A stretch of 64,000 nucleotides of DNA from Candidatus Micrarchaeota archaeon (GTDB lineage Archaea > B1Sed10-29), in assembly GCA_964579265.1 (NCBI GenBank), contig CAZOFO010000002.1, positions 24,680 through 88,679 on the forward strand, given 5' to 3'. The position numbers were made by a program. Shown piece by piece: positions 45,001 through 51,000 of this stretch (positions within the stretch are counted from its first letter, which is position 1; every line of letters starts with the position of its first letter).

Positions 45001-48000
45001 TGCGCAGAAAAAGGACTAGACACGCTAGTTATAGAAAAAAGACCTGAACTAGGAACACCAGTAAGATGCGGAGAAGGACTAGGAGAAGTATGGATGGAAA
45101 TGGCAGGCATAGAATACGATCCAGACTGGTGCAAAAGAAAAACAGAAGGAGCAGTAGTTTATCCACCAAACGAAAAATCATTAAAAGTAGATCCTGAAAA
45201 TAAAGGCTATATAATAGAAAGAAAGATATTCGAGAAAAAATTAGCCGAAGAAGCCGGAAGAAAAGGCGCAGATTACCTGCTTAAAACAAAAGCAGAGCAC
45301 GTGATACAAGAAGAAAATGAAGAAGGAGAAAAACAAGTCAAAGGAGTAGTAGTAAAAACCGATGAAGGAGAAACAAAAGAATACAGATCAAAAATAGTCA
45401 TAGCAGCTGACGGAGTAGAATCAAAAATAGCCAAATCAGCAGGACTCAACACAACAAATCCATTAAAAGACATGGATGCAGGATACGAATACGAAATGAC
45501 AAACCTAAATTTCCCAGAAGAAGAATCAAGATACATACACATATGGTTAGGAAACGAAATAGCCCCAGGAGGATACGTCTGGGCATTCTTCAAAGACGAA
45601 GACGTAGCAAACATAGGAATAGGAGTAAACCCAACTGAAGCAGAAAAAACAGCAAAAGAATACCTCGACGAATGGATAAGAAACCATCCAGAATACTTCG
45701 AAGAAGCAGCAATCACTGAGAAAAAAGGAGGAGGAATACCACTAGGAGAACCTCTAGAAAAACCATACACAAACGGATTAATGGCAATAGGAGACGCAGC
45801 ACACATGGTAAACCCAATACACGGAGGAGGAATGGGACAAGCAATGGAAGCAGCAAGAATAGCAGCAGAAACAGCAGAAAAATCAATAAAAAATGAAGAC
45901 TACTCAAAAGAAATGCTATCCGAATTTGCAGACAGATGGTGGGAAAAAAGAGGAAACCAACTAAAAGACATACAAAAAGTCAGAAACTTCGCAGAATCAC
46001 TAACAGATAAAGACCTAAATAAACTAAGAGAAATAATAGACCAAGAAGGACTATTGAACCTAGTGGACGCAAGCAACCTAAAGAAATTCTTAAAAGTATT
46101 CAAAGGAAGCCCAAAGATAGCTATGAAAGCAGCAAAACACCTAAAATAACTCTTTAGAAATGGATAAATATCCTAAAAAACATCCAGTAATGATTTCTCA
46201 AACCCAAACTAATTATTTCTCTCCTCCCAAATAATAAAATAGATGAAAATGGATACAACAAAACCTCTAAAAAACATAAAATCAACACTGAAAAACAAAA
46301 TTCCCAGAAGACTGAAAAAAATAGACGAACTTCCAACAGGAACCGTAACCGCATTATTCATAATAACTATAGTCACCACATACCTCTACCTAGCCTATAG
46401 CTACCTCTACATACCAGGACCTCAATTAGCAGCATACGGATTTATCTTAGAAAGACCACTAACTGCCTTATCCTACTCCTTCATACACCTCAGCCCCCAG
46501 CACATACTAGCCAATGTAGCTCTCCTCTTAGCCGTAGGTATCGTGGCAGAACAAAAACTAAAAACAAAGGACTACATAGCGATATTCTTCGCCTCAGCAG
46601 CAACTTCAGGAGTAGTATTCCATATACTAACACCCGAACCAACCGTACTAGTAGGAGCCTCCTCAGCAGTATCAGGGATACTAGCCGCATCAATATTCAT
46701 CGATATAAAGAAAGCAATTGTAGCGATATTGATATTTACGGTTTTCCTCAATTTCACAGCTCCTGTAGTAGAACAACACACCAGAGAAAAACTAGGAGTA
46801 TTGGAACAAGAAACACAACAAATAGAAGAAGAAGTAAATAAAACCGAAGAAAAGCTAAACAAAACTGAGGAAGAGATAAATAAAACTGAAGAAGAAGCAG
46901 ATGAAATTGAAAAGAAAATTAACGAAACAGAACAGGAAATAGGAGAGAAAATGACTAGGATAGAGTATTTAGAAAAAGAATGCTACGAGGAACCTATAAA
47001 CGAAACAGCATGTGAAGAACTTGATGAAATAGAAGAGCAGAAAGAACAAGTAGAAGAAGAATTAGAAGAATTAGAAAAAGGATTAGAAGAAAAAGAAGAA
47101 GAAATTGAGGAAGAAAAAGAGAAAAGACAAGAAATAACTATAGGGCTAAACAAAACAATAGAAAGATTAATGGAGAAAATGCAAGAAAAAGAAGTCGTAG
47201 AAGAAGGAGTAGAAAGAGAAGAAAGAGCTAGAACCAGCTCTATAGTGCACCTAGTAGGAGCAATAACAGGACTAATCTACCTAGGAATATTCAGGAGGGA
47301 CATAATATGGGATCTGCCATCTCAAGTCTCACAATAAGAAAAATAATACAAGAAATAAAACCTAAAATAGAAGATAAATACCTAAACAAAGTACAACAAC
47401 TAGAAAAAAATCTCTACAGGTTTAGATTCAGCCCAGGATCAAAAGACTTACTGATAGAGCCAGGAAAAAGACTTAACATAACAAAATACAGGCTTCAAGC
47501 ACCAAAACAAGCAACACAAGCATCCATGATCATCAGGAAACACCTGGAAAACACGAAACTAGAAAAAATAAACCAAAAAGGATTTGATAGGGTCGTGGAA
47601 ATGACATTCACAAACGGAAACAAAGTAATAGCAGAAATATTCGGAGAAGGAAACCTAATACTAACAGATAAAGATAAAAAAATAATTTACGCTCACAGAA
47701 GAGGAGAATGGAAACACAGAAAAATAATAAAAAACGCTGAATATAAATATCCTCCTTCAGACACCAATAGCTTCTACCAGACAGATTTAGAAGAATTCAA
47801 AAAACAGCTTGAAGAAAAGGAAGAGGATAAAAAGATAGTAGTTCTCCTAGCCACAGACTACGGACTAGGAGGAAAGATAGCAGAACACATCTGCAAAGAA
47901 GCAAACATAGATAAAAACAAGAAAAATCTAGAAGAAACCGAAATAGAGAAAATCTATGAAAAAACCAAAAAAACACTTGAAAAAGAACCAAAACCAGTTA

Positions 48001-51000
48001 AACAAGGAGAAAAAATCAATCCATTCCCATTAGAAGGAGAAATAGACGAAAAATACAATTCAATAAGCCAAGCAATCGATGAAAACTATACAGAAAAACA
48101 AGAAAAAACAGAAAAAAGTAAAGAACTAAAAAAACTTGAAAAAAGACTAAAACACCAAAAAGAAGCAATAAAAGGATTCAAAGAAAAAATAAAAGAAAAC
48201 AAGAAAAAAGGAGACCTAATCTACAAAAACTACGATAAAGTGGCAAAAGCAATAGAGCTATTCAATAAAGGAAAAGAAGGAAGAGAGAAACTCCAAGAAC
48301 TAGGAGTAGAATTAAAAGACGGTAAAATCATACTGGAATTGGAAGAACCAAAAAAAGAATGATAAATTCACACTAACATAGTCTCATCTACAACTATCAC
48401 ATCTGAAACAGAGAAAACTGCTTTAAATGGAACTCTAGCCATATTATCAGACCCAGTAAGGTCTCTAGCTATTGATGATCCACTATCAGCTTCCACTATC
48501 ATTGAATCTAGTTCTCCGCTTTTTTCTTCGATAGTAACGTCACTAAGGCGACCTATTTCTTCACCTTTGTTTGTAATAACTTTTTTTCCTCCAAGCTGTT
48601 TAGCTATCACGTATTTTTTTGATGCCATTTTAAATCCTCCTGTCTTAATTTGATTTTGATTAGTCTTTATTGTCTCTGAATAATCTCGATAATAATAAAT
48701 GAACATACCTTTAAAAACCTTTCCCCTTACCAATCAACACTAAACTAACTCTAATTAACCGACTTATTTGTAAAAAAGAACTTTAAAACCAGGTTCTAAA
48801 AACAAATCATGTTAGGGAGACAACCAAATATAGAAAAAGAAAGAATGAGAAAACTTTTTTCCACTTGCTTCTCAATAATATTCGTATTTTCCGCCCTAAA
48901 CGCAGGTAGGATACCTCCACTCACTTACGACGAATCAGGGATACCTAGACAAGTACCAATACAAGAAGCACTAGAAAAATCAAATAAATTAGAAGCACCT
49001 ACCTCAATACAAGGAAAACTAAAATATAACTCTATAAACGAAGAAACAGATATCTTTCTTCAAAGATCCTGGGAAAACGCTAGAAAAGCACAAGAAAAAG
49101 CAGAAGGATCGCAAAACGTATACAATAACTGGCTTGACAAAGGATGGGAATACTTCAAAGAAATATCCAGCCTCGGACTACTTAACACAAAAGTAGACGA
49201 AGTAGAAAAACTTCATCGAGAAACCAGAGAACACTACATAAAAGCACTTCAATCATCCAGATTAACCTATGAAGAAGTAATCTCTGACATGTATAGCCAA
49301 AAAATCAAACTGGAAAAAATAGGAGCAGATAACTACACCGGTCCAGCACACCAATCACACAAAAAAGTAAAAGAAACACTCAATAGACTGGATAAAGAAA
49401 AAATAGAAGAAGAAATATTTCAAGAAAAAGGAAAAGACATAGCCACAATAATGACAAAACTATCAAAAGAAATAAAAACAGCTGAAATGATAAACCCAGA
49501 AATATTCAACCTCATAACAAACCCAAGAAACTCTCTAATAACTGAATATAGCGAACTAAAAAAAGAAATAGATAAAGATATACAGAGAATGAATAAAACT
49601 AAAAGAAAACAAAAAGAAAAACACGAAAGACTGATAAAAAAACTTGAAAAAAGATTGACTGACCTGGAAAAAGAAAAAATAGAAAAAGTCAGATCCAACC
49701 CCTCCACAGGGAGAAAAGGAGAAATAACCCATACTGAAATAAGCGGAAACCCAGCTGAACAATACAGACAGATAGAATCAATCAAAAGTAAATCCGAAAG
49801 AAAAGCAGCTGAAGCAAGAAGGATATATAGAAACGAAGAATACAACTACCTATCTAGAAATATAAAAATATATAAAATGACAATAAACAACCTACAAAAA
49901 TCATTAGAAACAACTGAAGAACTTGAAAAAACCCTTAAAAATATAGAAAAACACTACAAAGAAAAAATAAACAAAAGAAAAAGCGAAATAGAAGAATCAA
50001 TCCTTACAAGATACAGAGAAAAAATTAAAGATAAGGAAGAATATGCAAAAGAGCAAGAAACCATTGGTGAAAGAATAAAAAAACTTGAAGAAACTCTAGA
50101 ATACATAGAAACAGTAAAAGAACTTGAAAAAGAAGATCTAACCCCGATAAAAAGAAGAATAGAAAACACAATCAATAGAGTAGAAAAATACATCGAACTA
50201 GGATATCCTCTTGAAGATAAACTGGAAAAATTAGAAAAACTGAAACAGGTAAACGACCCAGAAATGCTTCCAAAAACCCAAAAAACCTTAAATGAACTTA
50301 AAAAAACCATTGAAATAAGAACGTCTCCTCTTGAAAACGAAATAAGAGAAAAAAGAGAAAAAACAGATAGAATAATTGAATCAATGAACAAAATAACCAA
50401 AACAGCTTACGGAGAAATAGAAATATCTGATAAAATAGATGAAAAAAGACTAAAAGAACTAGAAAACCAATACAGAAAACTAAAATCCTTTGATCCATTA
50501 AAAAACCCGATTAGAAAATTAGAAGGATATAGAAGCATAATAAGAGAAATATCACCGGTAATAAACAGTTTCAAAGAAGAAATACTTTTAGAAAATACAG
50601 AGATAAAGCTAAATGAAGAAAAAGAAACACTAAAATGTAACCAAGAAATAATTACAGAGATACAGATAGAAATTCAGAATACCCTTCCAATAACTCTATA
50701 CAACACTAAAATAGAAAAAGAAATTCCAGGAAAACTAAAATTAAGACAACAACCAGAAAAAGAAAACCTACACCTAGATATAAACGAAATAAATCCACAC
50801 GAAACAGTAATAAAAACCAAAAAAGCAAAAATGACACCCTACACCTGTGAAGAAAAAAGAAAAGAAACAATATCAATAAATGAAGAAACAAAAACAGAGC
50901 AAAAAGAAATAAAGATAATAAGAAATGTTAAAGACCCGGAATTATTCCTAGATTCAAGGGTACCAGAAAAAGGAAAAATAATAAACAAGCCACCTAATGC

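Follow-up and report, generated by a model that had tools for sequence, protein, structure and literature searches.

Does an archaeal RqcH that is encoded by two genes still amount to one factor, and how widely is such an arrangement shared? The question arises from a 351-codon gene in the window (the whole stretch of 64,000 nucleotides analysed here), which begins with ATG, ends with TGA, and matches Pfam NFACT_N (PF05833) with residues 7–318 (model 2–345 of 456, E 1.6e-47) and NCBIfam RqcH_arch (NF041120) over model positions 1–351 of 645 (243.1 bits). A second gene, on contig C5, matches NFACT-R_1 (PF05670) over its full length (E 2.9e-33), positions 369–431 of the NFACT_N model, and positions 373–645 of NF041120 (325.5 bits). 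The complementary coverage of the NF041120 model confirms that RqcH is present as two separate genes, as the initial annotation had proposed. In a genome-wide profile search the two halves were the sole family matches in this genome (G000), with no full-length copy, and neither chain attains the curated 400-bit cut-off of NF041120.

The open reading frame previously given for the rear half (C5:15896–16702, 268 aa) stands, but its start probably does not: the second ATG, at C5:15908, is the likelier one because it lies just past the topA stop and is in line with the orthologues, giving 264 aa. On the front-half side, the upstream rhomboid gene is a conserved neighbor in 27/30 phylum loci, the PRC-barrel gene is kept in 27/30 phylum loci and in four Micrarchaeota-/Iainarchaeota-type loci, and many orthologous front halves have purine-rich words like GGAGG before the start.

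Table 1. Features of the two rqcH genes and of the front-half locus (window positions unless a contig is named).
Feature	Position	Strand	Remarks
rqcH front half, 351 aa	47307..48362	+	NFACT-N, HhH, first coiled-coil helix, M domain to penultimate β-strand
GGAGG, putative RBS	47294..47298	+	8 nt before front-half ATG, inside the end of the rhomboid gene
D94-R95	47586..47591	+	corresponds to the tRNA-binding DR motif of B. subtilis; D in 28/29, R in 28/29 in phylum
HhH region, aa 172–227	47820..47987	+	weak uS13-like match; deleted in five genomes (family f6)
First coiled-coil helix, aa 270–320	48114..48266	+	predicted antiparallel to rear-half aa 12–51
Terminal β-strand, aa 339–346	48321..48344	+	predicted partner, rear-half aa 1–8; cut is the turn right after
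Rhomboid-family protease gene with coiled-coil insert	46243..47337	+	31-nt overlap with front-half start
PRC-barrel gene, likely start near 48628	48368..48733	-	convergent, 5 nt past front-half stop
rqcH rear half, 264 aa, outside the window	G000:C5:15908–16702	+	last M strand, second helix, NFACT-R, NFACT-C

Position of the cut and predicted pairing of the chains

The break had been placed in the hairpin of the long coiled coil. The tip of the arm is indeed where it lies, not within the helices, however, but at a β-turn in the β-sheet of the M domain: all 64 of the 64 rear halves start at reference positions 381–383 (57 of them at 383), a count tightened by the picking of start codons nearest the domain start, and the cut corresponds to the turn between strands 375–380 and 383–388 in the structure model of a fused homologue. 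That model was predicted from a single sequence with a mean pLDDT of 49, and only its arm was used, where pLDDT is 87–91 over residues 291–430. On the other side of the turn, 60 of 63 front halves finish at most five residues from the hydrophobic strand pattern, even those without M-domain helices.

The prediction that the halves re-pair as an antiparallel coiled coil was reproduced, with contacts nearly those reported earlier: the complex model scores 0.65 versus 0.00 for the best of three controls, on a scale whose chosen mark is reached by 116/157 solved pairs and 2/215 mismatched pairs, and the runs show at least 85% contact agreement with a partner pLDDT of at least 84. The predicted interface is long, with 109–111 confident contacts, and both halves conserve the residues that form it. 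A high score is what would be expected for split halves; it could also stem from likeness to solved RqcH/NEMF structures.

Both genes are intact and under purifying selection (dN/dS 0.14–0.27 for the front half and 0.05–0.13 for the rear half, from nine pairs with finite dS), the front half evolving faster than the rear. E110, F112, and N116 of the front half, the first two of which belong to the EIM-like motif E110-I111-F112, are kept in 29/29 phylum sequences, as are D103 and H107 of the DxxxH motif in NFACT-R; in B. subtilis RqcH, binding of tRNA and the 50S subunit depends on the DR, EIM-like, and DxxxH counterparts. The genome encodes Pelota, Pth2, and Cdc48, and tRNA-Ala(UGC) is absent among the 26 tRNAs found in the bin, the assembly being incomplete.

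We consider it likely that archaeal rqcH (COG1293/NEMF family) underwent an old fission whose products form a working heterodimer. The structure prediction suggests that strand pairing and an antiparallel coiled coil some 50 residues long would restore the arm from the two chains, and, by analogy with B. subtilis RqcH and eukaryotic NEMF, the assembled pair may act like single-chain RqcH. The rear half (NFACT-R and the second helix) would then bind the split-off large subunit with its peptidyl-tRNA, the arm tip would contact the stalk base, NFACT-N of the front half would hold the tRNA anticodon, and the pair could support template-free C-terminal tailing. Judged by titles and abstracts, no paper on archaeal RqcH activity was found, so that even for single-chain archaeal RqcH we infer tailing.

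Distribution across DPANN and published splits

Within phylum B1Sed10-29 the split is fixed, as first described: both halves are separate genes in 29/31 genomes (a stand-alone rear half in 30/31 and a stand-alone front half in 30/31), and the single fused frame among them is again G003:C60. A 625-aa open frame in G009 proved on inspection to be a 264-aa frame. The fused frame is probably foreign, given its identity and its neighbors: it is only 32–37% identical to the halves in G000, against 82% for G003's own rear half, and of the three genes beside the fused frame two have no match in G000. An AU test does not exclude placing it inside the phylum (p 0.19).

As a mark of this phylum the split fails, since a break at this site also prevails in four other phylum samples. 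Half-length genes were the only form seen in 46/46 Micrarchaeota-type and 31/31 Iainarchaeota-type genomes, each of which has both halves, and likewise in 40/46 Altiarchaeota-type and 85/88 matching Nanoarchaeota-type genomes (13 of the 101 Nanoarchaeota-type genomes have no RqcH-family match). The gene is fused in 31/31 Nanohaloarchaeota-type genomes, in 56 of 80 named loci, and in one protein (P0020) of an Aenigmatarchaeota sample that otherwise consists of one partial record (P0051). Outside DPANN, the only candidates were three stand-alone rear halves with non-DPANN titles, all of which we rejected as such: L097 belongs to the same phylum as a Woesearchaeota-titled genome, and L113 and L142 have Iainarchaeota-type best matches and neighbors. 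The split is thus common to most DPANN phyla sampled and not special to B1Sed10-29. The split forms do not make one clean clade (AU test p 0.0004, computed on 39 of 105 rows with LG+F+G4, a fast search, and 5000 replicates, and carrying a low-replicate warning). A wider history, which we think unlikely, is that a single break of rqcH, at one β-turn, took place close to the root of DPANN (Altiarchaeota included) and was followed by re-fusion or replacement in Nanohaloarchaeota/Aenigmatarchaeota, in one clade of Altiarchaeota, and in a few Nanoarchaeota, the cut also yielding separable modules, a Cdc48-linked ribosome anchor and a tRNA carrier.

Nor is the split unreported. The family, arCOG01695/COG1293, was listed as split in N. 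equitans and Nst1 (Podar 2013) and published as split in Nanopusillus too, under the name “Predicted RNA-binding protein,” with the “same site” reported among the three. It is the same family as here, in two unlinked genes without an intact copy, and in 11/11 aligned Nanoarchaeota-type rear halves the start column is that of the rear half described here; we infer an identical cut in the named NEQ (NEQ438/NEQ506), Nst, and Nps proteins. For one Nanopusillus orthologue, Nps_03140, the published proteome table gives an MS1 value; for the other, Nps_00030, it gives no values.

Domain order (NFACT-N, HhH, coiled coil with M domain, NFACT-R, NFACT-C) and the DR, EIM-like, and DxxxH motifs are shared with single-chain RqcH/Rqc2/NEMF (NF041120; B. 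subtilis RqcH, 7AS8 and 7AQC; yeast Rqc2, 8AAF; human NEMF, 3J92 and 9GY4); unlike these, RqcH here is two chains, its M domain is shortened, as throughout the source organism's order, and HhH is lost in family f6. The solo NFACT-R proteins of eukaryotes, CCDC25/Jlp2 (Burroughs and Aravind 2014, PMC4075521, which does not mention “split”), likewise lack NFACT-N; these are partial duplications beside a full NEMF, with a C-terminal coiled coil, whereas the rear half has an N-terminal second helix and NFACT-C and no full copy in the genome. A fission site that allows assembly in trans is also seen in the N. equitans split AlaRS α/β, reverse gyrase, and Dph1/2, the AlaRS halves being active when combined according to PMC11392972. 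A split AlaRS in G000 was rejected: both of its pieces stop at contig ends, indicating an assembly gap. Most split informational proteins of DPANN are said to be confined to a handful of reduced lineages, unlike the rqcH split, which covers five phylum samples.

The terms “RqcH” and “NFACT” are absent from the searched passages of PMC11237513 and bioRxiv 10.64898/2026.05.13.725050, and a literature search by locus tag gave no match. In a search that left subscription papers and bioRxiv supplements outside, we did not find in print the RqcH identity of the split family, the DPANN-wide range of the split, or the placement of cdc48 directly after the rear half in 27/30 phylum genomes.

Other explanations of the split

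The cut might instead have made a dissociable factor, parting a ribosome anchor (rear) from a tRNA binder (front), so that the rear half would sit alone on the stalled 50S and be co-regulated with Cdc48 as the enzyme that would pull out the nascent chain, and the front half would cycle on and off with tRNA or have a partly separate role. In B. subtilis, 50S binding does not require NFACT-N or HhH, whose contacts are with tRNA alone, and solo NFACT-R proteins are known from the eukaryotes named above. Gene order points the same way: cdc48 lies 0.4–4.4 kb downstream of the rear half on the same strand in 27/30 phylum genomes, with pelota 5–13 kb upstream in 15/30, and is found within 2.5 kb in loci titled Iainarchaeota and in some titled Micrarchaeota, but in 0/56 fused named loci. 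Genome by genome, however, the cdc48 link holds in only 2/31 Micrarchaeota-type and 0/36 Nanoarchaeota-type genomes, and the block, which also contains topA, radB, and a gene for an RFC subunit, may simply reflect synteny. With the long interface conserved on both sides, and a second helix that would hardly be stable alone, we regard such a dissociable factor as quite improbable.

Covalent rejoining of the halves by RNA or protein trans-splicing has a precedent in N. equitans, with its split trans-spliced tRNAs and its split DNA polymerase, which is rejoined by a split intein. Here, neither end carries an intein or an extra domain, front halves finish 0–5 residues past the last strand, rear halves begin at the next, and each gene has its own start and stop, which makes rejoining extremely unlikely. 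We give equally little credence to the idea that the split is an artefact of assembly or binning, or that the pieces are decaying pseudogenes, even though G000 is a 41-contig metagenome bin and its congener G003 has a fused copy: the shorter distance to a contig end is 15.6 kb for the front half (C2) and 15.9 kb for the rear half (C5), which puts the halves at least about 31 kb apart, contigs of other runs bridge the front-half stop and the PRC-barrel gene (X5 record 14, 48206–48800, 0 differences; X6 record 23; this DNA may itself come from X1), which together with those distances rules out an assembly artefact, the halves lie far apart on one contig in G030 and in G054, G069, G118, G161, G178, G187, G191, G206, and G241, and selection is purifying on both.

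Meaning for RqcH and for DPANN

The core fact was in print by 2013, and what is added here concerns identity, range, and gene context, not a new kind of system. In the heterodimer that we favor, RqcH copes with a chain break at the tip of its arm, and the halves are natural two-piece reagents for studying tRNA binding and ribosome anchoring apart. Because each half falls below the family cut-off, annotation misses rqcH in DPANN genomes. One cut site over five phylum samples, together with the fused Nanohaloarchaeota genes, is relevant to DPANN phylogeny and qualifies the notion of a late origin of split genes in a few highly reduced Nanoarchaeota. A single early break, if true, would be a rare genomic marker of DPANN relationships, and a Cdc48-linked anchor module, if true, would give a first clue to the disposal of tailed nascent chains in archaea.

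Two RqcH genes in the source genome

RqcH in the source genome (G000) is encoded by two separate genes, as the initial annotation had claimed: a front half, carrying the NFACT-N side, in the window, and a rear half, carrying the NFACT-R side, on contig C5. The front half covers positions 2-345 of the 456 in Pfam NFACT_N and 1-351 of the 645 in the NCBIfam model RqcH_arch NF041120 (243 bits), to which the coverage of the rear half is complementary. Both halves match solved NEMF, Rqc2, RqcH or FbpA chains, and the genome holds no RqcH match beyond these two. A GGAGG word sits 8 nt before the front-half ATG, and a convergent PRC-barrel gene adjoins its stop. 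This stop and the next gene are spanned by contigs of two other sequencing runs (X5 and X6), the downstream gene being rejoined in a variant contig of X5, and no contig end comes within 15 kb of either half. The rear-half gene stands as annotated apart from its start: rather than 268 aa from C5:15896, it most likely has 264 aa from the second ATG at C5:15908, directly after the topA stop.

RqcH halves and associated features (C5, contig of the source genome G000)
Feature	Location	Strand	Description
RqcH front half	window 47307-48362	+	351-aa ORF, ATG start, TGA stop
RqcH rear half	G000:C5:15896-16702		NFACT-R_1 match; NF041120 373-645, 326 bits
Rear-half block	G000:C5:8898-19754		pelota, RFC small subunit, MiaB-like radical SAM, topA, rqcH rear half, radB, cdc48
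Rhomboid-family protease	window 46243-47337		charged ~150-residue coiled-coil insert between membrane helices
1202-aa protein	window 48809-52417		coiled-coil-rich, terminal hydrophobic segments, no Pfam match
1275-aa protein	window 40796-44623	-	repetitive surface-type protein with C-terminal membrane anchor

The cut and the predicted pairing

The break had been placed at the tip of the coiled coil, and the tip of this arm is where it lies; the cut itself, in the model, is a beta-turn of the middle (M) domain, because the front half ends and the rear half begins at successive strands. A fused homologue (L098), modelled from a single sequence with a mean pLDDT of 49 but 87-91 at residues 291-430, has helix 1 at 274-324, strands at 366-370, 375-380 and 383-388, and helix 2 at 393-454; the last front-half strand corresponds to 375-380 and the first rear-half strand to 383-388. 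Over five phylum samples, rear halves start at reference positions 381-383 in 64/64 cases, 57 of them at 383, a count tightened by choosing the start codon nearest to the domain start, yet the codon had to exist there. Front halves end within 5 residues of the hydrophobic strand pattern in 60/63, and the pattern also holds without the M-domain helices.

The proposed re-pairing as an antiparallel coiled coil is likewise predicted here, with a complex score of 0.65 for the two halves against 0.00 for the best of three controls; the mark used is reached by 116/157 solved complexes and 2/215 mismatched pairs. At least 85% of contacts recur between runs, and partner pLDDT is no lower than 84. In the predicted contacts, residues 270-320 of the front half run antiparallel to 12-51 of the rear half, and residues 339-346 of the front half meet 1-8 of the rear half. 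Such a score shows a predicted fit of the halves rather than binding, since the two parts of one split gene may reach the mark through likeness to solved structures.

Both halves retain motifs that are functional in B. subtilis. The B. subtilis structure paper (bioRxiv 10.1101/2020.09.03.281279), in the parts available to us, assigns RqcH to COG1293, has the NFACT-N DR and EIM motifs bind tRNA, and has 50S binding require the NFACT-R DWH motif. Their counterparts in the phylum are D94 and R95 (28/29 each), E110, F112 and N116 (29/29 each) in the front half, and D103 and H107 (29/29 each) in the rear half, with comparable rates in 34-35 other split rows and 42 fused rows. The dN/dS is 0.14-0.27 for the front half (four pairs; a fifth has saturated dS) and 0.05-0.13 for the rear half (five pairs).

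Range of the split and gene neighbourhood

The split had been taken as common to the whole phylum, which largely stands, and it extends to other phyla. Stand-alone rear halves and stand-alone front halves each occur in 30/31 phylum genomes, and both in 29/31 (front halves 244-351 aa, rear halves 241-268 aa); these genomes form a clade near Micrarchaeota- and Iainarchaeota-type sequences. The sole fused frame (L063, 642 aa, on the 4657-bp contig G003:C60) shares 32% and 37% identity with the two halves of G000, against 82% for the rear half that G003 itself carries on C30. Of the three genes next to the fused frame, an M18 aminopeptidase and a DUF7121 coiled-coil gene have no G000 match. This contig is probably foreign to its bin; placement inside the phylum was not excluded by an AU test (p 0.19). 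Front halves of family f6 (L055, L057-L060; G010-G014) have only 244-262 aa and lack ~90 residues covering the HhH region; comparable model-match gaps occur in 7/46 Micrarchaeota-, 3-4/31 Iainarchaeota- and 3/46 Altiarchaeota-type genomes.

Homologue searches returned stand-alone halves titled Woesearchaeota, Micrarchaeota and Diapherotrites, the best 150 representatives of the front-half profile being mostly ~320-390 aa and stopping at the profile end. The 80 named loci comprise 24 stand-alone rear halves and 56 fused genes; three stand-alone loci with non-DPANN titles all resolved to DPANN. Phyla were sampled around named loci, each sample being labelled by the title under which its centre genome is recorded. 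Both halves are present in 46/46 Micrarchaeota-type genomes (45/45 without the unpublished G174) and in 31/31 Iainarchaeota-type genomes, with no fused copy in either sample. Matches occur in 88/101 Nanoarchaeota-type genomes (none in 13), with three full-length copies among the matches listed, outside which lie 34 weaker ones. Altiarchaeota-type genomes are fused in 6/46 and have only half-length matches in 40; Nanohaloarchaeota-type genomes (centre titled Asbonarchaeaceae) have a single frame in 31/31, one stopping at model position 463; and one protein titled Aenigmatarchaeota is fused. The fused Nanoarchaeota-type copies L166-L168 (G137, G134, G063) have long branches, with rear parts best matching Bathyarchaeia-type proteins, and the six fused Altiarchaeota-type copies (L154-L159) form one clade, sister to the split Altiarchaeota forms. 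The halves are separate genes yet only ~1.3-2.7 kb apart in L081 (G041), L180 (G101), G226, G245 and G293, and the front half occupies two frames in L224 (G038:C1:6899-7999) and likewise in G220.

On the same strand as the rear half, cdc48 lies 0.4-4.4 kb downstream in 27/30 phylum genomes; in the other three the rear half is at a contig end or cdc48 has no match. Pelota lies 5-13 kb upstream in 15/30, and 28 kb in one more. Flanking topA and cdc48 recur in Iainarchaeota-titled and some Micrarchaeota-titled loci, the cdc48 link being found in 2/31 Micrarchaeota-type genomes (G174 counted), in 0/36 Nanoarchaeota-type genomes (five without rqcH, two without a listed rear-half position), and within 2.5 kb of fused rqcH in 0/56 named fused loci. 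Pelota, Pth2 and Cdc48 are all encoded in G000. A functional tie of this linkage to quality control is only a lead, since the block also contains topA, radB and an RFC subunit. In G007, G022, G008 and G025, cdc48 frames of 1179-1401 aa have interrupted matches, which suggests inteins.

Around the front half, the rhomboid-family gene is kept upstream across relatives, and homologues of the 1202-aa protein adjoin the front half in four same-family relatives. The repeats of the 1275-aa protein are presumably GLUG-like and bacterial-repeat-like units. Elsewhere in G000, contig C41 (1737 bp) has 66% G+C against ~36% in the rest of the genome and would be rRNA or foreign DNA.

History of the fission

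A concatenated tree of 105 rows groups mostly by phylum. The split/fused state has changed more than once, because AU tests on 39 rows (simple model, fast search, long branches) reject the split forms as an exclusive clade (p 0.0004). The free tree is matched in fit by a clade that unites all split rows with the fused rows of Altiarchaeota-, Nanoarchaeota- and Aenigmatarchaeota-type (p 0.72), and the test also leaves monophyly of all DPANN standing (p 0.38). The alternatives are a single early fission with later re-fusion or replacement, and repeated fission at this one turn; the single-residue precision of the cut tips the balance slightly towards a single origin. A RadB/RadA-like gene adjoins fused rqcH in Bathyarchaeia-titled loci (L075, L076, L079, L080, L086 and others), and this shared neighbour hints that the rear half kept the old locus while the front half moved.

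The split is already published for Nanoarchaeota, and the G000 pair is a further case. In the portions available, Wurch 2016 (PMC4935971) adds Nps 30-3140 as a further pair of the split family, Dombrowski 2019 (PMC6349945) has split genes arising late in some reduced Nanoarchaeota, and Burroughs and Aravind 2014 (PMC4075521) makes no mention of a split; the supplement rows of the Nanopusillus proteome table give an MS1 value for Nps_03140 and none for Nps_00030. A 2026 preprint (10.64898/2026.06.17.729505), in its available part, groups Nanohaloarchaea with Aenigmarchaea and Altiarchaea inside DPANN, which fits the fused RqcH of the Nanohaloarchaeota-type genomes and of the Aenigmatarchaeota-titled protein. 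Search listings, subscription journals apart, showed no paper naming the split gene as RqcH or describing the split across DPANN. Added here are the RqcH identity, the exact cut, the cdc48 neighbourhood, and the range over five phylum samples with its fused exceptions. The two-gene RqcH is real and under selection, and we are largely confident that it assembles into a normal factor.
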